Source: Escherichia coli 042 (GTDB taxonomy: Bacteria; Pseudomonadota; Gammaproteobacteria; Enterobacterales; Enterobacteriaceae). From it: a stretch of DNA of 64,000 nt. The position numbers were made by a program, and so were the translations under genes. The stretch lies in the NCBI RefSeq assembly GCF_000027125.1, contig NC_017626.1. One strand, given 5' to 3'. This document shows, one piece after another, positions 15,005 through 42,329 of the stretch (position 1 is the first letter of the stretch; every line of letters begins with the position of its first letter). The notes under the pieces are model-generated. The model made no database searches. It saw nothing but the letters and a program-made list of their open reading frames with translations, and was not told the origin of the DNA.

Positions 15005-15402
15005 CGCTTCAGTTCCTGTATCAGCAGAGTCAGGAGCTTTTCGCTGACATTGCCATTGAAGCGGAGCGTCCCGTGCCGGAACGTTACCTCACAGCTGATA
15101 CTGAGGGTTTCCGGGTCCTCTGCGAGCGATTCTGGCTGTTCGGCAGCTGCATCGAGAGTCACAGGAAGTAGCTGGGGGCTCTCTGAAGAAGGTAATAGCA
15201 GCTTTCCCTCGCGCCATTGTTGTCGCCATTTGAACAACAGATTGGCGTTAATGCCATTTTCAAGAGCAAGTTTTGAGATGGATATCCCGGGTTCACAGGA
15301 GGCAGCAACGAGCAGCTGTTTAAATTCGGGAGGATAATTAGGGAAGCCTTTTCGCCTGCCGGGAGTCACATTTTTCTGCATATCTGACACTTTGGTTCCC
15401 AC
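15001..15402 (-). CDS. IS66 Orf1 (TnpA-like, helix-turn-helix)
   Basis: 133-aa ORF overlapping orf2 start by 4 nt; ...RRKGFPNYPPEFKQLLVAASCEPGISISKLALENGINANLLFKWRQQ... Confidence 0.85.
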   Translation of the reverse strand: MGTKVSDMQKNVTPGRRKGFPNYPPEFKQLLVAASCEPGISISKLALENGINANLLFKWRQQWREGKLLLPSSESPQLLPVTLDAAAEQPESLAEDPETLSISCEVTFRHGTLRFNGNVSEKLLTLLIQELKR

Positions 15403-28232: not shown

Positions 28233-28724
28233 ATGGAGAGAAGTACAATGCAACAGCTTTCCTTTCTGCCCGGAGAGATGACGCCCGGCGAGCGCAGCCT
28301 CATTCAACGGGCCCTGAAAACCCTGGACCGCCATCTTCATGAACCCGGCGTGGCCTTCACCTCCACCCGTGCGGCACGAGAATGGCTGATTCTGAACATG
28401 GCGGGACTGGAGCGTGAAGAGTTCCGGGTGCTGTATCTGAACAACCAGAATCAGCTGATTGCCGGTGAAACCCTCTTCACCGGCACCATCAACCGCACGG
28501 AAGTCCATCCCCGTGAAGTGATTAAACGCGCCCTGTATCACAATGCCGCTGCTGTGGTGCTGGCACACAATCACCCGTCCGGTGAAGTCACACCCAGCAA
28601 GGCAGACCGCCTTATCACGGAACGTCTGGTACAGGCACTGGGCCTGGTGGATATCCGGGTGCCGGACCATCTGATAGTCGGTGGCAGCCAGGTTTTCTCC
28701 TTTGCCGAACATGGTCTGCTTTAA
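28233..28724 (+). CDS. RadC-like JAB-domain protein (YeeS/YfjY family)
   Basis: JAMM motif HNHPSGEVTPSKADRLIT. Confidence 0.8.
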   Translation: MERSTMQQLSFLPGEMTPGERSLIQRALKTLDRHLHEPGVAFTSTRAAREWLILNMAGLEREEFRVLYLNNQNQLIAGETLFTGTINRTEVHPREVIKRALYHNAAAVVLAHNHPSGEVTPSKADRLITERLVQALGLVDIRVPDHLIVGGSQVFSFAEHGLL

Positions 28725-28786
28725 CCCGTCACAACCACATCACACCTGTTTTCACTTTTATCTTCTGTCTTCAGAGGTATCCCACC

Positions 28787-29008
28787 ATGAAAATCATCAC
28801 CCGTGGCGAAGCCATGCATATTCACCGTCAGCATCCGGCATCCCGTCTTTTTCCGTTCTGTACCGGCAAATACCGCTGGCACGGCAGTGCTGAAGCGTAT
28901 ACCGGTCGTGAAGTGCAGGATATTCCCGGTGTGCTGGCCGTGTTTGCAGAACGCCGTAAGGACAGTTTTGGTCCGTATGTCCGGCTGATGAGCGTCACCC
29001 TGAACTGA
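28787..29008 (+). CDS. DUF987 small protein (YeeT-like)
   Basis: 73-aa MKIITRGEAMHIHRQHPASRLFPFCTGKYRWHG... Confidence 0.6.
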   Translation: MKIITRGEAMHIHRQHPASRLFPFCTGKYRWHGSAEAYTGREVQDIPGVLAVFAERRKDSFGPYVRLMSVTLN

Positions 29009-29170
29009 TGTTCCGTCACCCGGAAAACGAGTACGACTGGCTGAGCTCAGACGCCGCTGTGGATGAGGTCCTGCTCATCAACGAATACACCTTTACCGAA
29101 GCCGGTCTGCGCGCCGGCTGACCCGTCATCGTTAAACTATCATTCACCGATTTTCTGTGAGGATTTTATC

Positions 29171-29539
29171 GTGTCAGACACACTTTCCGGGACAACGCAT
29201 CCCGATGACAATGACGACCATCCCTGGTGGGGACTACCCTGCACAGTGACGCCCTGTTTCGGCGCCCGTCTGGTGCAGGAGGGTAACCGGTTGCATTACC
29301 TTGCCGACCGTGCCGGTATCAGAGGCCGGTTCAGAGATGCGGATGCGTACCCTCTGGACCAGGCCTTTCCGCTGCTGATGAAACAACTGGAATTAATGCT
29401 CACCAGTGGTGAACTGAATCCCCGCCATCAGCATACCGTGACACTGTATGCGAAGGGGCTGACCTGTGAAGCCGACACCCTCGGCTCCTGTGGTTACGTT
29501 TATCTGGCTGTTTATCCGACACCTGAAACGAAAAAGTAA
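29171..29539 (+). CDS. cbeA: CbeA/YeeU-family type IV antitoxin
   Basis: GTG start; [52 protein letters not shown]... close to K-12 YeeU. Confidence 0.8.
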
Positions 29540-29628
29540 ACCACCGGAATAACCTTCTGCTCCGGCCTGGTGTTTTCACCACGCCACTGTCCCATTTTTT
29601 ATCTCTGCATATCAGGAAAATCTTCAGT

Positions 29629-30003
29629 ATGAAAACATTACCCGACACGCATGTACGGGAGGTATCGTGCTGCCCGTCTCCCGTCACCATCTGGCAGACA
29701 CAGCTCACCCGACTGCTGGACCAGCACTACGGCCTTACGCTGAATGACACACCGTTCGTGGATGAACGTGTGATTGAGCAGCATATTGAGGCAGGCATTT
29801 CACTGTGTGACGCGGTGAACTTTCTCGTTGAAAAATACGCGCTGGTACGTACCGACCAGTCGGGATTCAGCGCAGGAGCCTCGTCGCAGTTAATCAACAG
29901 CATTGATATTCTCCGGGCTCGCCGGGCAACAGGCCTGATGACCCGCCACAACTACAGAACGGTGAACAATATCACCCTGGGTAAGTATCCGGAGGCGAAA
30001 TGA
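29629..30003 (+). CDS. cbtA: CbtA/YeeV-family type IV toxin (cytoskeleton-binding)
   Basis: 124-aa [43 protein letters not shown]...; immediately downstream of antitoxin. Confidence 0.8.
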
Positions 30004-30142
30004 TGAAACTGGCCCTGACACTGGAAGCCGACAGTGTTAACGTACAGGCACTGAATATGGGGCGAATTGTCGTTGACATTGATGGTGTTAATCTCGCTGA
30101 ACTGATTAACATGGTCTGCGATAACGGCTACTGGATTTGCCC

Positions 30143-31048
30143 CTATATTTCCAGACACCTGTTATCACTTAACCCATTACTGGCTTGCTGCCGTAGATAT
30201 TCCCGTGGCGAGCGATAACCCAGTGCACTATGCGGATGCCATTCGTTATAATGCTCGAACGCCTCTGCAAGGTTCTTTGCTGCCGTTAACCCGTCTGGTT
30301 TGGGCATGACACTGATGTAGTCACGCTTTATCGTTTTCACGAAGCTCTCTGCTATGCCGTTACTCTCCGGACTCCGCACCGCCGTGTTCTTCGGTTCAGG
30401 CCCCAACATCCGGGCAAACTGCCGTGTTTCATTAGCCCGGTAGCATGAACCATTATCCGTCAGCCACTCTACTGGAGACGCCGGAAGCTCGTTGCCGAAA
30501 CGGCGTTCCACCGCTCCCAGCATGACGTCCTGTACTGTTTCACTGTTGAAGCCGCCCGTAGTGACCGCCCAGTGCAGTGCCTCACGGTCACAGCAGTCCA
30601 GCGCGAACGTGACTCGCAGTTTTTCTCCGTTATCACAGCGGAACTCGAACCCGTCAGAGCACCATCGCTGATTACTTTCTTTCACAGCCACTCTGCCGGT
30701 ATGTGCCCGTTTCGATGGCGGTACAGCGGGTTTTCGCTCAAGCAACAGCGCATTCTGGCGCATGATCCGGTAAATACGTTTGGCATTGATCGCAGGCATA
30801 CCATCAAGTTCGGCCTGTCTACGAAGCAGCGCCCATACCCGACGATAACCATATGTGGGCAGCTCTCCGATAACATGGTGTATACGGAGAAGCACATCCG
30901 TATCATCTGAGTGACGGCTGCGGCGACCATCTTTCCAGTCATCGGTTCGTCTGAGAATGACGTGCAACTGCGCACGCGACACCCGGAGACAACGGCTGAC
31001 TAAGCTTACTCCCCATCCCCGGGCAATAAGGGCGCGTGCGCTATCCAC
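30143..31048 (-). CDS. insD: IS2 transposase OrfB (InsD)
   Basis: 301-aa integrase-core transposase. Confidence 0.9.
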
Positions 31049-31416
31049 TTTTTTGCACGCCCATATTCAACGGCTTCTTTAAGGAGTTCATTTTCCATCG
31101 TTTTTTTGCCGAGCAGGCGCTGGAGTTCTTTAATCTGCTTCATGGCGGCAGCAAGTTCAGAGGCAGGAACGACCTGTTCTCCTGCGGCCACAGCAGTAAG
31201 ACTTCCCTCCTGGTATTGCTTGCGCCAGAGAAATAACTGGCTGGCTGCCACACCGTGTTGCCGGGCAACAAGGGAGACTGTCATTCCCGGTTCAAAACTC
31301 TGCTGAACAATAGCGATCTTTTCCTGTGTAGTACGCCGTCTGCGTTTCTCCGGTCCTAAGACATCAATCATCTGCTCTCCAATGACTAGTCTAAAAACTA
31401 GTATTAAGACTATCAC
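31006..31416 (-). CDS. insC: IS2 OrfA (InsC)
   Basis: Helix-turn-helix ...[47 protein letters not shown]... Confidence 0.9.
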
Positions 31417-31854
31417 TTAAATAAGTGATATTGGTTGTTTGGAGATTCAGGGGGCCAGTCTAGCTACTCCCTTCGTGTTGTTGATGAATCTGACCGGACC
31501 TCAGCAGACTGCACGCCACCATTTGTTGCCCTTACCGGCATACGCTGCAGTACCGCACATATCACGGAAACGGACAACGCCTGGCTGTACTCGCTGTCAC
31601 ACCAGACCAGTGACTTCGGTGAATCAGAATGGATTCATTTTACCGGTACCGGTTATCTGTTACGTACCGATGCGTGGTCATACCCGGTTCTGCGGCTTAA
31701 GCGCCTGGGGCTGTCAAAAACGTTCCGTCGTCTGGTCGTCACACTCATCCGGCGTTATGGTGTCAGTCTCATTCATCTGGATGCCAGTGCCGGATATCTG
31801 CCGGGTTTACCCACTTTCGACTGGTAATCCGGAAATTCACAACATGAAATCATT

Positions 31855-32020
31855 AACCACGGAAACAGCGCTGGATATTCTGATTACGTGGCTGCAGGAC
31901 AATATCGACTGCGAATCGGGAATTATCTTCGACAACGATGAGGATAAAACAGGTTCGGCAGCACTGTTGCGCTGTATCGAACAGGCCAGGGAGGGTATCC
32001 GTACCCTGCGCCAACAGTAA
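31855..32020 (+). CDS. hypothetical small protein (55 aa)
   Basis: MKSLTTETALDILITWLQDNIDCESGIIFDNDEDKTGSAALLRCIEQAREGIRTLRQQ; start chosen within track ORF 31439..32020. Confidence 0.35.
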
Positions 32021-32929
32021 CTTTTGCACCAGAACCAGTGAAGATCACTCACCCGATTTCACTTCCCTGACGTCAGCCTGAACACGGCTGGCGTTTTCAT
32101 TTATAAACAGAAAGGAAAAATGATGATGTCAGATACCACACTCTCCCGCCCGGAGGTGGTCAGCGGGCATACGGACGTTATCTATTCCACCTCAGTCTGC
32201 CACATTCTGGCTGTACGAAAGAGTACACTGTTGCCAATCGACACAATTATCCGGCATCAAGTAAGCGATATCAGTTAACCGATATAGATGGGGAAGATGC
32301 TTTTATCCGGATTGGTTCTATCGCGATGGTGCGAGTACCACTTGATGCAATGGCGCCTGTCGAGGAAGATGACGAGTAACAGAGCTCGGTATCTCAATCA
32401 GGACCTGATTGTCCTGGTTCGATGCCGAAAACCAGTGATTTTTCGTGTTGGTATCTGTGTTGGTATAGGATGGTGTTGTTTATTATTAACAATTTTAAAT
32501 CATGAGGTTAAATCGCATGTTTGAGTCCGGCCTTCGCACCACATCGTATGCAAATCGAGTCGCTCAAGGGCGGCTTTTTTTGTACCTGTGTTTTCACTAC
32601 TTTGTTTGCATGTAACGCTGATAATCTAAGAACTTCGGAAGCCCCATTTCCATCAATGATGTTCATTCATCATCCTGAAAATTAAGTAGATATAAAACTT
32701 CATTGCCTTGGTCTAATGGCACAGAAATAGATTGCATTTGGCGAGTGGCATTCTTAGTGCGTCGTTGTTTAGTCATGAAACGATGCGTAAAATTGCTGAT
32801 TTTATGTGTCAAAGTCCCGCAACCGGAGATGGCCTTACTTCAATGATCAACCACTATTGACGTATCCTTTTAATATCTTGATTCAATTCAGCAGGTTATC
32901 GTCCAAAGTACAGCGAAGAGAGAGAAAAG

Positions 32930-35821
32930 ATGATTGGTACAACACCTTATCATGCGAAATATTTTGCGCATGAACTTTCCATTCTTCATTCAAACAATGG
33001 GGTGGACCGTCTGTCTCAATCGCTGTTTGATGCAAGCGTAGATCTAAACCCTCATCAAATTGAGGCGGCTCTTTTTGCTATCGAAAATCCGCTAAGCAAA
33101 GGTGTTGTGCTTGCCGATGAAGTTGGTTTGGGTAAAACCATTGAAGCTGGACTAGTGCTTTGCCAGTTGTGGGCTGAAAGAAAACGTAAACTGTTGATCA
33201 TTTGTCCTGCTTCACTGCGTCGCCAATGGGCGAGCGAGTTACAGGAAAAGTTCAATCTACCTTCTCAGGTGTTGGACGCGAAAATGTATAGCCAGCTTCA
33301 AAAAGAAGGGATCCATAATCCCTTAAATAATAAATCGATCACTATCATGTCATACCACTATGCTGCTCGGTTAGAAGAGAAATTGGTGGCTGAAATGTGG
33401 GATCTGGTTGTTATCGACGAAGCCCATAAACTGCGTAATGCTCATCGAGAAAGCAACAAAATGGGGCAAGCGTTAAAGCGTGCGCTTGATGGGCGGAAGA
33501 AATTACTACTGACCGCAACGCCTTTACAGAACTCGTTGATGGAACTGTATGGCATGTCGACGCTTATAGATGAACATACCTTCGGCGAAGTTAAAGCGTT
33601 CAGAAAGCAATATATGCAGGCAGATAGCGATATTGCGGAGTTGAAGGGGCGATTGTCGCGTTTTATCAAACGAACTCTACGCAAGAATGTGCTGGAGTAT
33701 ATCAAGTATACAGAACGTAAAGCGATCACTATTCCTTTCTATCCGAGCGAACAGGAGCAGGATCTTTATGAACGCGTACAAAAATTGCTTGAACGTGAGG
33801 ATAGCTATGCCTTACCAAAACGACACCGGCATCTGACGGGGCTTATACTCAGAAAACTACTTTCCTCAAGTACGAAAGCCGTATTGAATAACTTGCAGAT
33901 CCTTAAGACTCGTTTAGAAAGGTTAAAGCTGGAAGGTATCGTTGAAGATGATATGGACATCATCCAACAGATCATAATGGATGATGATCTTGAAGATGAC
34001 ATCGTTGAAGATGCCGAATCAGTAGCGCCAGATACAGAGTGCAAATCTGTGGATTCAGATGCGCTTCAGGCAGAAATCAATGAGCTGGAATCACTCATTG
34101 TCAAAGCAGAACAGATTGGCACTGATACCAAATCAAAAGAGTTGCTTTCTGGCCTGGAGCAAGGTTTTGCACAGCTTGCCGAAATGGGGGCTGCAAAAAA
34201 AGTCATCATCTTCACGGAGTCGATGCGAACTCAACAGTACCTTGCACATTTTCTGGAAAACAATGGCTACCAGGGAAAAGTAGTAACCTTTAGTGGCACA
34301 AACAATACACCGCAGGCAAACAAGATCTACCAGCAATGGCGCGAGGAATATCAGGGATCTTCTCGTATTACCGGGTCGGCGCAAATTGATAAACGCTCGG
34401 CTTTGATCGACCACTTCAAAGATCATGCTGAAATCATGATAGCTACAGAAGCTGCAGCTGAAGGGGTGAACCTGCAATTTTGTTCGCTACTGATCAATTA
34501 CGATTTCCCCTGGAACCCACAACGCATTGAACAGCGTATTGGACGTTGTCACCGATACGGGCAAAAATTTGATGTGGTTGTTATTAACTTCCTCAATCAG
34601 CGAAACCAGGCCGATCAACGCGTTCTTGAACTCTTAACTGAAAAGTTCAGCCTGTTTGATGGCGTGTTTGGCGCATCGGATAGTGTGCTTGGCAGCATAG
34701 AAAATGGTGTGGATTTTGAAAAAAGGATCCAGTCAATTTATGAGTCATGCCGTACCCCCGAGGAGATAGAGCTGGCTTTTGAAAGGTTGCAGAAAGAGCT
34801 GGAAGATGAAATCAATCTCAAGATGCAGAAGACGCAAGAACAGTTGCTTGAGCATTTTGATGAAGATATTCACGATATCCTTAAAATAAGGCTTGATGAA
34901 GCTCGGGAGCGCCTGGATAAAGTCGGTCGTTGGTTTTGGGCCGTGACCTGTCAGCAGCTCAAACAATATGCTGATTTTGATCATGAGCATCATCGTTTCA
35001 CTTTACGTGAATCAGTCAATGAACTGCCTGTCGGGCAGTACCAGCTGTTGCGCAAAGATGGCAGGCAAAATAGTGCGTTACAAATGCAGGATCACCACAG
35101 TTTTGCATATCGGATCAATCATCCGCTGGGTGAGTACGTCATTGAGGGAGCCAAAGCCCAGGAGACGAAAACAGCTGAAGTCATCTTCGATTACAGTAAC
35201 CACACAACGAAAGTTTCGGTGGCTGAGCAGCTGAAAGGGCAATCAGGATGGTTAACACTAAATTTGCTTACTGTTGATGCGTTTAACAGGCAGCAATTTT
35301 TAGTCTTTACCGCGAAAACTGACAACGGACGTGTGGTAGATGGTGAAGCTTGTAAACGTCTGTTCAACTTGTCTGCAATAACCAACGAAAAGCTGGATAA
35401 TTCGGCAAGTTTAGATGCATTACCTGATGACTTGATCTTACTCAAGAACAGGCAAATTGACGCCAGGCTTGCAGAAGTTTTGGAGCAGAACTATGTCCTT
35501 TTTGAAGCGGAAAGAGATAAGCTGGAAAAATGGGCTGAAGACATGATCTTTGCGGCGGAAGAAGCATTACGCGATACCAAAATGCAAATCAAGTCGTTGA
35601 AGCGAGAAGCCAGGCTGGCGCAATCGATCGAAGAACAAAAGCAAAACCAGGAAAAGCTTAAGCTACTGGAACGGCAGCAGAAGCGTCAACGTATGGAAAT
35701 TTTTGACATTGAAGATGAGATCGCCGACAAGAGGGATGAACTCATCAGTGCCCTTGAAGAGCGGATGAAGCAAAAGACGGATATCACCGAGCTGTTTACC
35801 ATCCGCTGGAAAGTTATTTAA
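32930..35821 (+). CDS. SNF2-family ATPase, RapA/HepA-like, short N-terminus
   Basis: 963 aa. Motif I LADEVGLGKTIEAG, motif II VVIDEAHKLRN, motif III LLLTATPLQN, motif VI QRIGRCHRYGQ; C-terminal coiled-coil-like region. Several blocks resemble RapA; RapA N-terminal domains absent. Confidence 0.85.
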   Translation: MIGTTPYHAKYFAHELSILHSNNGVDRLSQSLFDASVDLNPHQIEAALFAIENPLSKGVVLADEVGLGKTIEAGLVLCQLWAERKRKLLIICPASLRRQWASELQEKFNLPSQVLDAKMYSQLQKEGIHNPLNNKSITIMSYHYAARLEEKLVAEMWDLVVIDEAHKLRNAHRESNKMGQALKRALDGRKKLLLTATPLQNSLMELYGMSTLIDEHTFGEVKAFRKQYMQADSDIAELKGRLSRFIKRTLRKNVLEYIKYTERKAITIPFYPSEQEQDLYERVQKLLEREDSYALPKRHRHLTGLILRKLLSSSTKAVLNNLQILKTRLERLKLEGIVEDDMDIIQQIIMDDDLEDDIVEDAESVAPDTECKSVDSDALQAEINELESLIVKAEQIGTDTKSKELLSGLEQGFAQLAEMGAAKKVIIFTESMRTQQYLAHFLENNGYQGKVVTFSGTNNTPQANKIYQQWREEYQGSSRITGSAQIDKRSALIDHFKDHAEIMIATEAAAEGVNLQFCSLLINYDFPWNPQRIEQRIGRCHRYGQKFDVVVINFLNQRNQADQRVLELLTEKFSLFDGVFGASDSVLGSIENGVDFEKRIQSIYESCRTPEEIELAFERLQKELEDEINLKMQKTQEQLLEHFDEDIHDILKIRLDEARERLDKVGRWFWAVTCQQLKQYADFDHEHHRFTLRESVNELPVGQYQLLRKDGRQNSALQMQDHHSFAYRINHPLGEYVIEGAKAQETKTAEVIFDYSNHTTKVSVAEQLKGQSGWLTLNLLTVDAFNRQQFLVFTAKTDNGRVVDGEACKRLFNLSAITNEKLDNSASLDALPDDLILLKNRQIDARLAEVLEQNYVLFEAERDKLEKWAEDMIFAAEEALRDTKMQIKSLKREARLAQSIEEQKQNQEKLKLLERQQKRQRMEIFDIEDEIADKRDELISALEERMKQKTDITELFTIRWKVI

Positions 35822-35826
35822 TTGAT

Positions 35827-38800
35827 TTGAAAGAGAAAATAATGAGTAAGTACAACGAATTAGTTAAGAAGTTAAAAGAAATTTTTCAGATTGATCGACC
35901 AGAACTGGATTTCGGTATTTATCGTATTTTAAATGCACGTGCTGATGAAATTAACGACTATCTGGATAATAAGCTGAAGGCCAAAATCCAGTCTGCGCTG
36001 GCGGATGCAGGAAATGCCAATAAATCAGAATTAGAACATCAGTTGCAACTGACAATAAAAGCGGCAACTGATGCGGGTGTAGACCCTGCTGATAGCCCAA
36101 AAGTACAGGAGCTTAAAAAGCAACTGGCGGCTATGGCATCCGGAGCAAATGAGCATGAAAATGCAGTATTTTCCCATCTGCTCACTTTCTTTTCGCGTTA
36201 TTATGACAACGGCGATTTTATCAGCAAACGCCGTTATAAAGGTAATACCTACGCCATCCCCTATTCTGGCGAAGAAGTGATGTTGCACTGGGCAAATAAG
36301 GACCAGTACTACATTAAAAGCGGTGAAAACTTCGCTAATTATTCGTTCAAATTAGAAGACGGTCGTAAAGTTAGCTTTAAATTGCTCGCAGCGGACACAG
36401 CAAAAGATAACCGTAAAGATAATGAATTAGATCGCTGCTTTGTACTTATTGAGCCGCATGTTCGTACCAAAATTGATGAAGAAGGCGATGAGTACGAACA
36501 AGAATATAAGCCAGTAGAAGTGGTGAAAACTTCATCTGTGGTTGACGGTAAACTCGTTGAAACAGAAGAGTTAGTTATTCATTTCGAATATAAGGCAATG
36601 AAAAAGGGCACTAAGCAGGATGCTTTAGTGCAGTCCGCTATTTCAAAAATTCTGGCTGATAAAACAGTACAACAGCATTGGGTTGATCTTGCTAAACGTG
36701 CGCCAACCGAAAAAAATCCGTCACGTACAGAGTTGGAGCGTCATTTAACAACATATACCCAACGTAATACGGCTGACTACTTTATTCATAAAGATCTCGG
36801 TGGCTTTTTAACGAACGAACTGGATTTTTATATTAAAAATGAAGTAATGAATCTCGATAATGTGCAAAATGCAGAAGTGTTTGCTAATATTGAGAAACAA
36901 CTGCGCATGATTCAATGTTTGCGTGCTGTTGCGCTGGAACTCATCACTTTTTTGGCACAGATTGAGAATTTCCAAAAGAAACTTTGGACTAAGAAAAAGT
37001 TTGTTGTAGAGACAAACTATATATTTACCGTAGATAAGTTACCAGAGGAATTATATTCAATTGTCATTAAGAATGATGCCCAATGGGAACAATGGAAGCA
37101 ATTAGGTTTCCTCAGCGATTTTTCGGGAGATAGAGAGAAAACTCTGAAAGAAAAACAAGGGTTAATTGTTGATACTTCATTATTTGATTCCAAGTTCAAA
37201 GAGAAATTTATCAACAATATCGCTGATGTTGACACAAATGTTTCCGCTTATTTATATAGTGGAGATAATTATCAAGTGTTAAATCTTATTAAAATAAAAT
37301 ATAATAATAAAGTTGATGGTATATATATAGATCCACCTTATAATACCAATGCGTCTGAGATTTTATACAAAAACGGTTATAAGGATAGCTCATGGTGTTC
37401 TTTAATGAGTTCTCGTTTAGAGATAAGTAAATCCTTATTAAAAGAAAATGCAGCTACTTGTACAACTATTGATGAGTATGAAGTTGCTAATTTGGAATTA
37501 TTGCTAAAAGAAACGTTTACAGGATATCAAATCAGACCTGTTGTTATTGAATATAACCATCGAGGACGAGTTAAAAGTAATTTCGCTATTACCCATGAAT
37601 ATGCTTTATGGACCTTACCAGAAAATAAAGATGTAATATCGAGACAAGTTGAAATATCAGAAGAAATTAGGCGTAACTTGCGTAGAACTGGTTCAGGTTC
37701 TACTCGTGCCGAATCTGAAAGTCAATTTTATGGCATCGAAGTTGACAATAATACCCTCGAGATTGTCAATGTAACCGAAGCTTTACCAAGTTTAGATTCA
37801 GCAATTCCTACGCATCTAAATAAAGATACAACAATGGTATGGCCAGTAGATGACCAAGGGGTTGAGCGGCGCTGGTACTATGGGCGAGATCGTGTTATTC
37901 GCGAAGCTAAAGAAGGTACTGTTTGGGCGAAAAGAATAAAAGGTGAGATACAAATACATTACAGACAAGCAGGAAAACCTAAAATGCGTAAATCTGTATG
38001 GATTGGTCCAAAGCTTGACGCAAGTACCTATGGTTCGGAACTATTAAATAGTTTGTTTAACGTGACTCAGATTAATTTTTCTTTTCCAAAAAGTATTTAT
38101 GCGGTTAAGGAATGTTTAGAGTCGCTTAGTAATTCGAAGTATGCTCATTTCTTAGACTATTTTGCTGGCTCTGGTACTACAGGGCATGCAGTGGTAGATA
38201 TGAATAGGGATGATAATGGTTTTCGAAAATTTAGCTTGGTCGAACAAGGTGAATATTTTTATTCTGTTACCTTGCCTAGAGTAAAAAAAGCTATTTTTAC
38301 AACTGATTGGAAGTATGGAAAAGCACTAAGCTGTAATCCAGTTGAGCAGACATTAATAAAATATATTAAAATTGAGAGTTTTGAGGATACTCTTAACAAT
38401 ATAGCACTGAAACGTACTGAAACAACAAAGGATCTTTTCGACGATCTTAAAGAAATTCGAGAGGATTATGTTCTTAACTATATGCTTGAAACAGAAAGCA
38501 AAGGCTCACTACTCAATACTGATAATTTCAAAAAACCATTTAACTACGAAATGGATGTTACAACGGATTCCGCAGGTGCTACTGAGCGTAAGAACATCGA
38601 TTTAGTTGAAACTTTCAACTATCTCATTGGCTTACATGTGAAATCCATCGAATCCAATATCGAACGTGGCTATGTGCGTGTTGAAGGAACGCTACCAACT
38701 GGCGAGCGTACCCTTATTCTGTGGCGCGATTGCGACAAGATCGGCTATGAAGAATTGAATAAATATGCCAACAGATTCGATTTATATGCAAAAGAAAATA

Positions 38801-38946
38801 CGTTCGACGTTATCTATATCAATGGCGATCATAACTTACCTACCGCCTTTACCGTTGATGAAGAAGACGGCGAGATTGTTCGTAGCCTGAAAATCCGCCA
38901 GATCGAACCTGAATTCTTGAACCTGATGTTTGCGGAGGAGGTTTAA
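35827..38946 (+). CDS. DNA methyltransferase, N6-adenine/N4-cytosine (beta-class order), Type III Mod-like with N-terminal extension
   Basis: 1039 aa. Motif IV DPPY (IYIDPPYNT, about 37330) precedes motif I FxGxG (DYFAGSGTTG, about 38160), with a roughly 290-aa variable region between; about 500 aa of unrecognised N-terminal sequence. 6-nt gap after SNF2 gene. Confidence 0.8.
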   Translation: MKEKIMSKYNELVKKLKEIFQIDRPELDFGIYRILNARADEINDYLDNKLKAKIQSALADAGNANKSELEHQLQLTIKAATDAGVDPADSPKVQELKKQLAAMASGANEHENAVFSHLLTFFSRYYDNGDFISKRRYKGNTYAIPYSGEEVMLHWANKDQYYIKSGENFANYSFKLEDGRKVSFKLLAADTAKDNRKDNELDRCFVLIEPHVRTKIDEEGDEYEQEYKPVEVVKTSSVVDGKLVETEELVIHFEYKAMKKGTKQDALVQSAISKILADKTVQQHWVDLAKRAPTEKNPSRTELERHLTTYTQRNTADYFIHKDLGGFLTNELDFYIKNEVMNLDNVQNAEVFANIEKQLRMIQCLRAVALELITFLAQIENFQKKLWTKKKFVVETNYIFTVDKLPEELYSIVIKNDAQWEQWKQLGFLSDFSGDREKTLKEKQGLIVDTSLFDSKFKEKFINNIADVDTNVSAYLYSGDNYQVLNLIKIKYNNKVDGIYIDPPYNTNASEILYKNGYKDSSWCSLMSSRLEISKSLLKENAATCTTIDEYEVANLELLLKETFTGYQIRPVVIEYNHRGRVKSNFAITHEYALWTLPENKDVISRQVEISEEIRRNLRRTGSGSTRAESESQFYGIEVDNNTLEIVNVTEALPSLDSAIPTHLNKDTTMVWPVDDQGVERRWYYGRDRVIREAKEGTVWAKRIKGEIQIHYRQAGKPKMRKSVWIGPKLDASTYGSELLNSLFNVTQINFSFPKSIYAVKECLESLSNSKYAHFLDYFAGSGTTGHAVVDMNRDDNGFRKFSLVEQGEYFYSVTLPRVKKAIFTTDWKYGKALSCNPVEQTLIKYIKIESFEDTLNNIALKRTETTKDLFDDLKEIREDYVLNYMLETESKGSLLNTDNFKKPFNYEMDVTTDSAGATERKNIDLVETFNYLIGLHVKSIESNIERGYVRVEGTLPTGERTLILWRDCDKIGYEELNKYANRFDLYAKENTFDVIYINGDHNLPTAFTVDEEDGEIVRSLKIRQIEPEFLNLMFAEEV

Positions 38947-38948
38947 GA

Positions 38949-41900
38949 ATGGCTAAAAAACCGACCACCGGTAAAGCAGTTAAAAAAGAGACTAACAGCA
39001 AGCTGAGCTTTCATAAGCAGTTGGTTTTAAACCGCTTTATGTTCCATTTTTTTAAAGATGGCACATTGCAAGGTTTGAAGAATCGGTTAGGCGAGGATCG
39101 CTTTGAAGGCATCCATGAAGATGGCCAAAGCTTATTCTTCCATGAGCTGAGTAACTATTTATTCGAGGTCGATCTTATCGATCTCGATGAACTGCGTCGT
39201 TACGATCTCAATATCGTGCAGCACTGGCAGCAGATAACCGAGCACCGTAATCGTAAAGAAGACACAGTGCTGAACATGAAATATTTTCAGTACTTGTCGC
39301 TTCTGTTTACCGAGATCTACCTGGACTGGTACTTCAACCGTAAACAGCAATTACTCGATGGGCTAAATAACGAGCTGGCAGCATACAATGCTGAAAATGA
39401 TAAAACAGCAAAAGACCGGGCTAATCAGTTCAAATCATACGTTCTGGATGATTTGAATAAACTGGCATACTGGAACGCTACTGGTTCTGGTAAGACACTG
39501 CTATTACATGTCAATATTTTGCAATATTTACATTATTTCCAGAACGGTAATAGCCATCATTACCCGGATAAAATCATCCTGCTTACGCCGGATGAACGCC
39601 TATCGAAGCAACATTTAGATGAACTGGAAAACTCAGGATTTACCCAATACCAGTTATTCGATAAGAGTAAATCCGCGCCATTTAAAGGCACGATTGAAGT
39701 TATTGATATCAATAAACTTGCCGATGAAATGGGTGACAAAACTGTTGCCGTTGAGGCATTTGAAGGCAACAATCTGGTCTTGATTGATGAAGGGCATAAA
39801 GGCACAGGAAGTGCTGCTGGTGCCTGGATGCGCCGTCGTGACAAATTAACGCGTGACGGATTTGCGTTTGAATATTCAGCAACTTTTGGCCAGGCAGTGG
39901 CCGGTGGCAATAATGTTGAGGCAGTTGAAACAGAAATTCAGAAGAAAAAAGCAAAGCTGCTTTTTGAAACAACTGCCTTAGGTAAACTGAGCGAAGAACA
40001 GTTAGCGCAAATAGCATTAACCAGCGAAGAACAACGTGATGCGCGTATTCAGGCGACACGAGAAGTCTATGGGAAATCGATTCTGTTCGATTACTCCTAT
40101 AAATTCTTCTATGAGGATGGTTATGGTAAAGAATCACTGATTCTTAACCTTAATCCTGAAGAGGATAAAAAAGATGAGCGTCGGTATGAGTATTTTACCG
40201 CGTGTTTGCTCAGCTTTTATCAGCAACAATATTTATTCAATAAGAATAAAGAAAAATTAAATGAATTTAATATCGAAAAACCGCTATGGGTTTTTGTCGG
40301 TAACACCGTAAGTGGTGAAGATTCAGACATTCACGCAGTACTGCGTTTTTTAGCATGGTTTTTAAATCATGAATCGCAGGCAAAATCGTGGATTAAAGAT
40401 CTCATTGAAAATAAAGCGCGAATTCTTGATACCAAAGAGCGTAACATTTTTGAAAATCGCTTTACCGCACTAATGAACGGCCCGGAAGATATCTACGCAG
40501 ATATTCTTTCTCGTTTGTTTAACACCACTCACTCAGGTCAGAGACTGCGAGTTCTGAATTTAATAGGCAGTAAAGGTGAACTGGCATTACAGGTTGGTGA
40601 GGCCGAACCGTTTGGTCTTATCAATATTGGTGATGCACCGTCTCTTTACAAAATGTGTGAAGAGGATACGACATTTGATTATCAGAGAGATGATTTTGCG
40701 AAGTCACTCTTTCATACGTTAAATGACAAAGACTCGCAACTACATATTTTGATCGGCTCGCGAAAATTTACTGAAGGCTGGAGCAGTTGGCGCGTCTCAA
40801 CGATGGGATTGCTCAATATGGGCCGTGGAGAAGGTTCACAGATCATTCAGTTATTTGGTCGTGGCGTTCGCCTTAAAGGTCGCAATTATTCTTTGAAACG
40901 CAGTACACCCGGTGAGCGTCCGAAAGGGTTGCATCTGGAAAAATTAGAGACACTGAATGTATTCGGTGTACGTGCCGATTACATGGCAACCTTTAAACAA
41001 TACCTGGAAGATGAAGGGATTACGCCAAGTGACGAGATCCTTGAGCTGAATTTTGAAACTCGGCCAAATATGCCAGCAACCAGGCTTAAAACACTTAAGC
41101 TTAAAGATGGTTATAAAGATAATCAAAGACTCGGCTTTAAACGTGTCTATTTTCCCGAATTGTATGAAGTTCCTGCTGATTTTCAGGGGAAAATTAAGCA
41201 GCCGCATATTAAGCTGGACCTATACCCGAAACTTGAGTCGATTGATACCAGCAGAAAAGGGGACAATACTCCGGTTAACGTGCGTAATGAAGCGAAGTTA
41301 GATTATAAAATCATTAGTGCGTTTGATTTTGATCGGCTTTATCTCGCCATTCAGAATTATAAACTACAACGCGGCTGGTCAAATTTACGTGTGGATAAAC
41401 AACGTTTGATCGACTTTTGTACCGGTAAGACAAAGATCGGAAATAGTTGGTATACCCTTTTGATTCCAGCTTCAGAGCTTGAGATTAAGCAATATGCAGA
41501 TATTGCTAAGCAGGAAGATATTATGCTTCGTCTGCTGACTGATTATACTGATCGCTTTTACAACACATTGAAAAATGCTTATGAAGGTCAGTTTTATGAA
41601 GTCACGCAGGTGAAAGAAGATGATCCTGGTATGATCAAAATGTACCATTTCGAGATCGAAGAAACTGATGATGGGTTGGCATATGCCAGTCGGCTGGAAC
41701 AATTACAACAATTGGTCATCGACGGCGAAATCGGTAAAGCAAAATCCTGGAGTGCATCCGGGATGGTTGCTATTACCTTTGATAAACATCTCTATTATCC
41801 ACTTCTTTCGATTGAAAAAAATGCCAACATACCGCTAAAAATGCGACCGGCAGCACTGGGTGCATCAAGTGAGATTACTTTTGTCCATGATCTTCAGTCT

Positions 41901-42329
41901 TTTGTTGATTCGACAAAAGGGCAGAAAATTATTGGTGATAAAAGTTTATATCTGCTAAGAAATGCGGATTCTAAAAATAGAGGCCTGGGCTTTGCTACTG
42001 CGGGTAATTTTTATCCGGATTTCTTATTGTGGTTAGTCGATGATAAAAGTGGTAAACAATGGTTAAGTCTTATTGATCCAAAAGGCATCCGCAATCTTAA
42101 TCTTGATGATCCAAAGTTCGGATTATATAAAGAAATCAAGAATCTTGAACATAAATTATCGGATGATAACTTATCATTAAGTGCATTTATTGTTTCTGAA
42201 ACTTGTTATGTTGACTTAGTAAACGTACCTGATTCAAAAGAGAATCTGGAAGCCAGAAATGTGCTTTTTATTGAGGATACTGGCTCATTGTATCTGGAGA
42301 AATTATTCAGTAAGATGGTTAGCGAGTAA
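38949..42329 (+). CDS. SF2 helicase with C-terminal PD-(D/E)xK-like motif, Type III Res-like
   Basis: 1126 aa. Walker A NATGSGKT, DExH LIDEGHKG, SAT, QLFGRGVRLKG; C-terminal YPDFLLWLVDDKSGKQWLSLIDPKG. Start 2 nt after methyltransferase stop. Confidence 0.8.
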   Translation: MAKKPTTGKAVKKETNSKLSFHKQLVLNRFMFHFFKDGTLQGLKNRLGEDRFEGIHEDGQSLFFHELSNYLFEVDLIDLDELRRYDLNIVQHWQQITEHRNRKEDTVLNMKYFQYLSLLFTEIYLDWYFNRKQQLLDGLNNELAAYNAENDKTAKDRANQFKSYVLDDLNKLAYWNATGSGKTLLLHVNILQYLHYFQNGNSHHYPDKIILLTPDERLSKQHLDELENSGFTQYQLFDKSKSAPFKGTIEVIDINKLADEMGDKTVAVEAFEGNNLVLIDEGHKGTGSAAGAWMRRRDKLTRDGFAFEYSATFGQAVAGGNNVEAVETEIQKKKAKLLFETTALGKLSEEQLAQIALTSEEQRDARIQATREVYGKSILFDYSYKFFYEDGYGKESLILNLNPEEDKKDERRYEYFTACLLSFYQQQYLFNKNKEKLNEFNIEKPLWVFVGNTVSGEDSDIHAVLRFLAWFLNHESQAKSWIKDLIENKARILDTKERNIFENRFTALMNGPEDIYADILSRLFNTTHSGQRLRVLNLIGSKGELALQVGEAEPFGLINIGDAPSLYKMCEEDTTFDYQRDDFAKSLFHTLNDKDSQLHILIGSRKFTEGWSSWRVSTMGLLNMGRGEGSQIIQLFGRGVRLKGRNYSLKRSTPGERPKGLHLEKLETLNVFGVRADYMATFKQYLEDEGITPSDEILELNFETRPNMPATRLKTLKLKDGYKDNQRLGFKRVYFPELYEVPADFQGKIKQPHIKLDLYPKLESIDTSRKGDNTPVNVRNEAKLDYKIISAFDFDRLYLAIQNYKLQRGWSNLRVDKQRLIDFCTGKTKIGNSWYTLLIPASELEIKQYADIAKQEDIMLRLLTDYTDRFYNTLKNAYEGQFYEVTQVKEDDPGMIKMYHFEIEETDDGLAYASRLEQLQQLVIDGEIGKAKSWSASGMVAITFDKHLYYPLLSIEKNANIPLKMRPAALGASSEITFVHDLQSFVDSTKGQKIIGDKSLYLLRNADSKNRGLGFATAGNFYPDFLLWLVDDKSGKQWLSLIDPKGIRNLNLDDPKFGLYKEIKNLEHKLSDDNLSLSAFIVSETCYVDLVNVPDSKENLEARNVLFIEDTGSLYLEKLFSKMVSE

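Follow-up and report, generated by a model that had tools for sequence, protein, structure and literature searches.

The window analysed here is a stretch of 64,000 nt from Escherichia coli 042 (NC_017626.1), and it carries a CP4-44-like module, part of a chromosomal island flanked by the fec operon on one side and gntP/uxuAB on the other. Pfam matches in the upstream part of the module follow the order DUF932, antirestriction gene, RadC/JAB, DUF987 (YeeT-like), CbeA and CbtA. A DUF5983 gene is located directly 3´ of the CbtA-family toxin gene in this yeeS-yeeT-cbeA-cbtA module, a layout that is the same in K-12, and in the window this gene is split by an IS2-type element. The features of the split segment, with positions counted from the first letter of the window, are as follows.

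29171-29539, plus strand: cbeA/yeeU-family type IV antitoxin gene, intact (Pfam CbeA_antitoxin, 1.3e-53)
29629-30003, plus strand: cbtA-family toxin gene, 124 aa, intact (Pfam CbtA_toxin, 4.1e-60)
30000-30131, plus strand: 5´ fragment of the DUF5983 gene, codons 1-44 (PGAP 'DUF5983 family protein, incomplete, missing C-terminus')
30127-30131, no strand: left copy of the target-site duplication, GCTAC; the intact allele has a single GCTAC here
30132-31462, minus strand: IS2 isoform, 1,331 bp, with 59 mismatches and no gaps relative to canonical IS2 and with matching ends
30143-31048, minus strand: IS2 orfB, InsD-type DDE transposase domain, 301 aa, intact (NCBIfam TnpB; Pfam rve/rve_3/HTH_21)
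31006-31371, minus strand: IS2 orfA, InsC-type, 121 aa, intact (NCBIfam TnpA; Pfam HTH_Tnp_1)
31463-31467, no strand: right copy of the target-site duplication, GCTAC (script comparison)
31468-31827, plus strand: 3´ fragment of the DUF5983 gene, codons 45-163 and the stop codon, native start lost (PGAP 'incomplete, missing N-terminus')
31844-32020, plus strand: small downstream gene, 58 aa, 'DUF957 domain-containing protein' (PGAP), the last gene of the operon

The stop codon of cbtA and the start codon of the interrupted gene overlap (ATGA; the DUF5983 reading frame runs from 30000), and a terminator-like hairpin at 32069-32095 follows the DUF957 gene. The antitoxin equivalent in strain STN0717-20 is annotated as WP_001360327.1, and the toxin is PGAP WP_001514886.1 in the genomes that carry the same insertion (referred to below as carriers). 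In one of these carriers, ECZP248, a tRNA-Leu adjoins the same locus; a tRNA scan of the window itself returned no tRNA gene. The 58-aa frame annotated as DUF957 had no Pfam match at E<=1e-3, and the NCBIfam models provided no family for the reconstructed DUF5983 protein, the toxin, the antitoxin or the DUF957 gene. DUF5983 proteins also appear under the name 'Aec77'. They are found consistently downstream of CbtA toxins (PMC10790755; bioRxiv 10.64898/2026.06.09.728211). Published mentions of yeeW or DUF5983 consist of such statements of genomic association, with no function reported.

The boundaries of the element were read from the window sequence and checked by script. The left junction reads ...GATAACGGCTAC / TGGATTTGCCCC... 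and the right junction reads ...GGGGCCAGTCTA / GCTACTCCCTT..., such that the left flank terminates in ...TGCGATAACGGCTAC at 30131, the element opens with TGGATTTGCCCCTATATTTCCAGACACC at 30132 and closes with ...GGGGGCCAGTCTA at 31462, and the right flank opens with GCTACTCCCTTCGTG at 31463. A perfect 5-bp direct repeat, GCTAC, abuts both ends of the element, with no sixth matching base. The first-pass annotation had placed an IS2 with a 5-bp GCTAC duplication at 30132-31462, and these coordinates are right to the base. The ends were set independently of the repeat by aligning the element over its full length, without gaps, to further IS2 copies; therefore, the chance of an exactly abutting 5-bp repeat is approximately 1/1024. 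Insertion of IS2 generates a 5-bp target duplication. A search for a literature statement of this length returned nothing directly useful, and 5-bp repeats were observed at three further independent canonical IS2 insertions, which gives four 5-bp repeats in total with the copy in the window. The transposase genes are antisense to the operon, and the IRR terminus lies at 30132 and the IRL terminus at 31462.

Both transposase frames score above the cutoffs of the IS2-specific NCBIfam models: orfB reaches 706.1 bits against NF006918 'IS2 transposase TnpB' (cutoff 597), and orfA reaches 276.4 bits against NF006928 'IS2 repressor TnpA' (cutoff 229). The two frames overlap around an A6G programmed -1 frameshift motif (31048-31054), which lies at IS position 409 in both the window element and canonical IS2, and PGAP annotates a 'programmed frameshift' for the transposase at the carrier locus. 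The imperfect terminal inverted repeats of approximately 41/42 bp start with TGGATTTGCCCC and TAGACTGGCCCCC, as in IS2. Compared with three canonical copies, whose transposase is 'IS3-like element IS2 family transposase' in PGAP, the element has the same length and termini, 59-60 substitutions and zero indels (95.5-95.6% identity). OrfA is 100% identical to the canonical protein at the amino acid level, although its gene carries approximately 20 silent changes, and OrfB is 96% identical (290/301). By the ISfinder convention, more than 90% DNA identity or more than 95% protein identity marks a copy as the same element or an isoform. The values obtained against the PGAP-named IS2 copies (95.6% for DNA, 100% for OrfA and 96% for OrfB) lie within this range. 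The length, termini, A6G site, model scores and 95.6% DNA identity thus identify the element as an IS2 isoform. It shares with IS2 (IS3 family, IS2 group) the 1,331-bp length, the termini, the two-ORF layout, the A6G position and the 5-bp duplication, and differs from the canonical sequence by 59 substitutions (4.4%). The name IS2 given in the first-pass annotation is accordingly borne out by the models, ends and length, with the qualification that the copy is an isoform (95.6% at the DNA level) and not the canonical sequence. PGAP names the window-type transposase only 'IS3 family transposase' (WP_155105063.1), whereas the canonical one is named 'IS3-like element IS2'. Isoform copies at least 99% identical to this one occur in 361 records, and about two dozen of the best 60 matches listed are located at other chromosomal and plasmid sites; the isoform is thus in circulation and is no private variant.

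Excision in silico of the element together with one GCTAC joins 30000-30131 to 31468-31827 in one continuous reading frame (163 codons and a stop codon), close to the approximately 165 codons claimed earlier. The proposed check against intact homologues was run, and the reconstructed gene matches its intact DUF5983 counterpart in E24377A and WP8-S18-ESBL-07 at 492 of 492 nt. In these two strains, the intact allele reads ...AACGGCTACTCCCTT... with one GCTAC, and its protein (WP_000976842.1) is 100% identical to the reconstructed protein. Pfam detects DUF5983_N (PF25638) at residues 5-59 (profile positions 1-55 of 56; 108.2 bits, gathering threshold 27) and DUF5983 (PF19419) at residues 70-163 (76.8 bits, gathering threshold 27). 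The DUF5983_N match is continuous through the excision point between residues 44 and 45. The description of the gene as yeeW-like also agrees with these data: K-12 YeeW of the CP4-44 prophage is 71% identical over the N-terminal 55 aa, an alignment that crosses the junction, and its gene likewise follows cbtA immediately, with an identical 4-nt overlap between stop and start. The K-12 protein is a natural truncation of 64 aa that comprises the N-terminal domain alone, whereas the window gene has the full 163 codons and is split by the IS. The reconstructed protein retrieved 1,061 homologues at E<=1e-5, mostly of 162-163 aa. The best 120 of the 1,061 are all at least 85% identical, with the exception of one partial match, and an alignment of these listed homologues would therefore be shallow.

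The reconstructed toxin-DUF5983-DUF957 segment (1,056 nt) aligns colinearly and in one piece in 3,717 of 5,426 complete E. coli genomes. Its best intact match is 98.7% identical, with 14 differences that all fall inside cbtA. In the same set of complete genomes, no IS-free genome combines the exact cbtA allele with the exact DUF5983 allele, so the precise pre-insertion haplotype was not observed. Exact excision restores a known intact allele, which supports the single-step insertion proposed in the first-pass annotation.

The distribution of the insertion was determined with junction-spanning 80-mers against the 5,426 complete E. coli genomes. The left junction was found in 47 genomes, the right junction in 54, both in 42 and either in 59. 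The carriers come from humans, cattle, dogs, pigs, a dolphin, river water and wastewater, and the carrier records that were opened are from Japan, China, Korea, Spain and Mali. Many E. coli genomes contain IS2 in several copies (with a median of 3 places), and repeats of this type can misassemble, which raises the question of whether a repeat-induced misjoin placed an IS copy into the gene. The chance of such an artefact is practically negligible: the perfect 5-bp duplication and the restoration of a known allele upon excision form a transposition signature, and identical junctions recur in 42-59 independently assembled complete genomes.

The carriers share more than the junction. In all 10 carrier loci for which annotation was retrieved, the same island module and the same SNF2 neighbour gene were observed, and in all four carriers retrieved with long flanks the right side runs on to gntP-uxuAB. 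Five carriers (STN0717-20, FORC_031, ST648, ECZP248 and JE86-ST05) were aligned base by base over the 2 kb that comprises the gene, the IS and DUF957; they show the same IS orientation and target-site duplication, with 0-1 SNP relative to the window outside a recombined patch. The RefSeq carriers STN0717-20 (NZ_AP022482.1), ECZP248, ST648, FORC_031 and MARGA_4 have the same IS, site, duplication and neighbours as the window, whereas individual carriers possess extra ISs that are absent from it (ISEc23 in radC, IS100 and ISEc43 in cbtA). The chromosomes of STN0717-20, ECZP248, MARGA_4 and JE86 contain no IS2-like sequence besides this copy, and a resident element was therefore not its donor in these four chromosomes. 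Over the 22 kb upstream, IS-bearing genomes are 99.6-99.9% identical to the window, compared with at most 99.3% for IS-free genomes. The best match is MARGA_4 (99.9% over 22 kb), and no complete genome of the collection is 100% identical to the window. At least 80% of this upstream 22 kb is covered in 1,092 genomes; the island is thus much commoner than the insertion.

A shared junction could also arise if the site in DUF5983 were an IS2 hotspot that was struck independently in several lineages, the junction being shared by target preference. Other IS2 insertions do occur in the module, close to the DUF5983 3´ end in 3359, mid-gene in CE-O153H30 and in cbtA in LC-1302-2020, and a separate 5-bp repeat flanks each of them. 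These insertions are at different positions and consist of canonical IS2, not the window isoform, whereas the five aligned carriers agree in isoform, orientation and duplication, and the neighbour in the 10 annotated loci is the same SNF2 gene. The 59 junction genomes include no case of the opposite orientation, another IS2 variant or another locus. FORC_031 has the same junction, but 2 kb of its left flank are only 92.5% identical to the window. Its IS is identical to that of the window, however, its 2 kb right flank is 100% identical, and the last approximately 85 bp before the IS are also identical, with the divergence starting upstream of them; this pattern indicates recombination after the shared insertion, with a breakpoint approximately 85 bp to the left. 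The ETEC-type E-strains are 97.8% identical to the query, a value equal to that of FORC_031, and these sequences point to an upstream recombination that is probably common to both. Repeated independent insertion is thus extremely unlikely. All IS2 insertions found in the module appeared to share one orientation; this pattern was discounted as a search artefact because the search joins pieces only on one strand.

We conclude that one insertion took place in the ancestor of one island sub-lineage and was inherited by approximately 1% of complete E. coli genomes. The insertion is young: the gene halves, the repeat and the IS are all undecayed in the window. The word 'recent' in the first-pass annotation holds in this sense of no decay since insertion. 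It would be wrong if read as an event in the strain of the window, because the insertion is inherited and not private to that strain (junctions in 42-59 of 5,426 genomes).

The gene is split at codon 44/45, and its tail lacks the native start, in line with the earlier claim of insertional inactivation downstream of the toxin gene. The 5´ head reads on into the IS and ends at 30218, forming a 72-aa chimera (30000-30218), while the cbeA and cbtA reading frames are untouched. From this gene structure, we infer that full-length DUF5983 protein is lost; the same structure suggests that transcription into the DUF957 gene, the last of the operon, is probably lowered by polarity. A consensus scan of 28700-32200 for promoters and terminators found nothing above expectation, with 3 promoters versus 2.9 in shuffled sequence and 4 terminators versus 3.1, an outcome that counts neither for nor against outward transcription driven by the IS. 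The phenotypic cost of the knockout may be nil, because DUF5983 has no known function and K-12 has only a truncated yeeW.

The split gene may do more than lose its product. IS3-family ends can bear outward-facing promoter elements, and a start codon or outward transcription supplied by the IS would express the DUF5983 C-terminal domain together with DUF957, or the IRR end would give rise to an antisense RNA to cbtA. A TTG at 31435 opens a 130-aa frame (31435-31827) that leaves the IRL end in frame with the 3´ fragment, and neither fragment shows decay in the carriers aligned base by base. In the consensus scan, however, neither end of the IS showed a sigma-70-like site, and the TTG lacks an obvious Shine-Dalgarno sequence upstream. 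The undecayed state of the fragments is equally explained by youth (0-1 SNP in 2 kb), and one or the other fragment is deleted in several descendants, which argues against selection to keep them. Expression driven by the IS is accordingly very unlikely to be the better description of this locus than plain inactivation.

The locus is thus almost certainly the product of a single transposition of an IS2 isoform into DUF5983 codon 44/45, followed by inheritance with the island. In this sequence of events, an IS2 isoform of the IS3 family transposed once into codon 44/45 of the gene just downstream of the cbeA-cbtA pair, and staggered cutting of the target produced the 5-bp GCTAC duplication. What is left of the gene is a head of 44 codons, which is fused to the IS and encodes the 72-aa chimeric peptide, and a tail of 119 codons that has no start of its own. 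The full-length DUF5983 product would be lost, and DUF957 transcription would probably fall through polarity. The interrupted island sub-lineage was subsequently passed on, with further IS-driven erosion in other carriers.

The finding is an ordinary gene knockout that is already known, since RefSeq (PGAP) shows two DUF5983 pseudogene halves around an IS3 family transposase in dozens of genomes. It is a standard case of an IS landing in a gene without a known function, here within a degenerate prophage-like island, and matters little in itself. Among complete E. coli genomes, approximately 1% carry the junction, which provides a clean marker of one island sub-lineage. The intact and IS-split alleles also constitute matched natural material for testing a role of DUF5983 in CbtA/CbeA, as they differ only by the IS and the 14 cbtA substitutions in the compared segment of approximately 1 kb. 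It is very improbable that the IS2-split allele persists and spreads because of altered CbtA/CbeA behaviour, beyond hitch-hiking. If this were nevertheless true, DUF5983 would be a third component of the type IV toxin-antitoxin system, and the IS-split allele would be a ready-made test. Possible routes to altered CbtA/CbeA behaviour are loss of DUF5983, loss of the downstream genes whose translation is coupled to it, and antisense or outward transcription from the IS ends.

The carriers constitute a natural erosion series for the island, with this insertion as its starting point and, in some of them, as the first step toward further IS-driven erosion. A second IS is nested in the first in four genomes, and in JE86 an ISEc43 lies inside cbtA. 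PC6 shows an internal deletion that extends from the IS into the 3´ DUF5983 fragment. The left side of NCCP12480 is heavily rearranged, with an IS-adjacent deletion. In E200086, a deletion takes the module from Ag43 through cbtA, and a truncated IS66 transposase gene abuts the right end of IS2.

The cbeA-cbtA toxin module, which also contains the DUF5983 and DUF957 genes, is a recurrent IS target. Apart from the IS2 isoform that splits the DUF5983 gene of the window, canonical IS2 has entered this module independently in other E. coli genomes; the three loci seen, each with its own 5-bp duplication, are listed below (coordinates of the respective locus).

L003 (strain 3359), 2316-3646: canonical IS2 at the 3´ end of DUF5983, duplication ATCTG
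L004 (strain CE-O153H30), 2182-3512: canonical IS2 in the middle of DUF5983, duplication CACAG
L005 (strain LC-1302-2020), 1654-2984: canonical IS2 inside cbtA, duplication AGCAG

No single insertion hotspot within the module was seen among the IS2 insertions compared.

The toxin gene of the window carries a distinct allele. Over 1,056 nt, all 14 differences from E24377A, the closest IS-free allele, fall within nt 74-232 of cbtA (window 29702-29860) and result in the substitutions Q25L, G35S and S78P, and no differences were observed in the adjacent DUF5983 and DUF957 genes. Judged from this clustering, the segment looks like a gene-conversion patch with a paralogous module as its putative source. 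The combination of this cbtA allele with the DUF5983 allele of the window was found in no IS-free genome of the collection. The 58-aa ORF located 3´ of DUF5983 (31844-32020) is named 'DUF957 domain-containing protein' by PGAP; a Pfam search of this ORF returned no match at E<=1e-3. A small ORF adjoining DUF5983 (AntiFam ANF00264), possibly this one, may be misclassed as spurious (2026 preprint, bioRxiv 10.64898/2026.06.09.728211).

Some genomes retain only one of the two junctions of the window's IS2 (NCCP12480, E200086 and PC6; loci L012, L013 and L014), with deletions or nested ISs that begin at IS2; in E200086 the whole Ag43-to-cbtA block is gone. There, the transposase gene of the island's IS66-family element is truncated and immediately adjoins the right end of IS2, the intervening DNA being deleted. 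These genomes are a natural series of island erosion subsequent to this IS2 insertion. The remaining features of the window, on both sides of the module, are as follows.

1339-8884: fecIRABCDE ferric-citrate operon, followed at ~9100-11400 by remnants of IS1, IS3 and IS5 together with a gene of the YmgB/AriR family (identified by reference to the annotation of MARGA_4)
13222-15402, minus strand: complete IS66-family element (tnpA, tnpB, tnpC) in the island
32120-32400: two short pseudogene fragments between the DUF957 and SNF2 genes
32930-42329, plus strand: three large genes immediately 3´ of the toxin module
47732-48654: IS1 copy in the nanC-gntP interval, next to a fimbrial-protein gene that is truncated

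A scan of the 64,000-nt window detected no tRNA gene; in ECZP248, tRNA-Leu adjoins the same locus. The two fragments, annotated by PGAP in related genomes as 'hypothetical protein, missing C-terminus' and 'HTH transcriptional regulator, missing N-terminus', suggest an earlier deletion at this position. Taken together, the three large genes resemble a type III R-M system (a 1,039-aa methyltransferase and a 1,126-aa restriction enzyme) with an attached SNF2/DrmD-like helicase, the top PADLOC match of which is DrmD (4.9e-198). The methyltransferase is broken in some relatives, as two ORFs in ST648 and by ISEc52 in MARGA_4. Because IS1 adjoins the truncated fimbrial-protein gene, the arrangement implies that most of the fim region was lost by an IS1-associated deletion, and it is common to the carriers of the same IS2 junctions examined (STN0717-20, ST648, ECZP248 and JE86).
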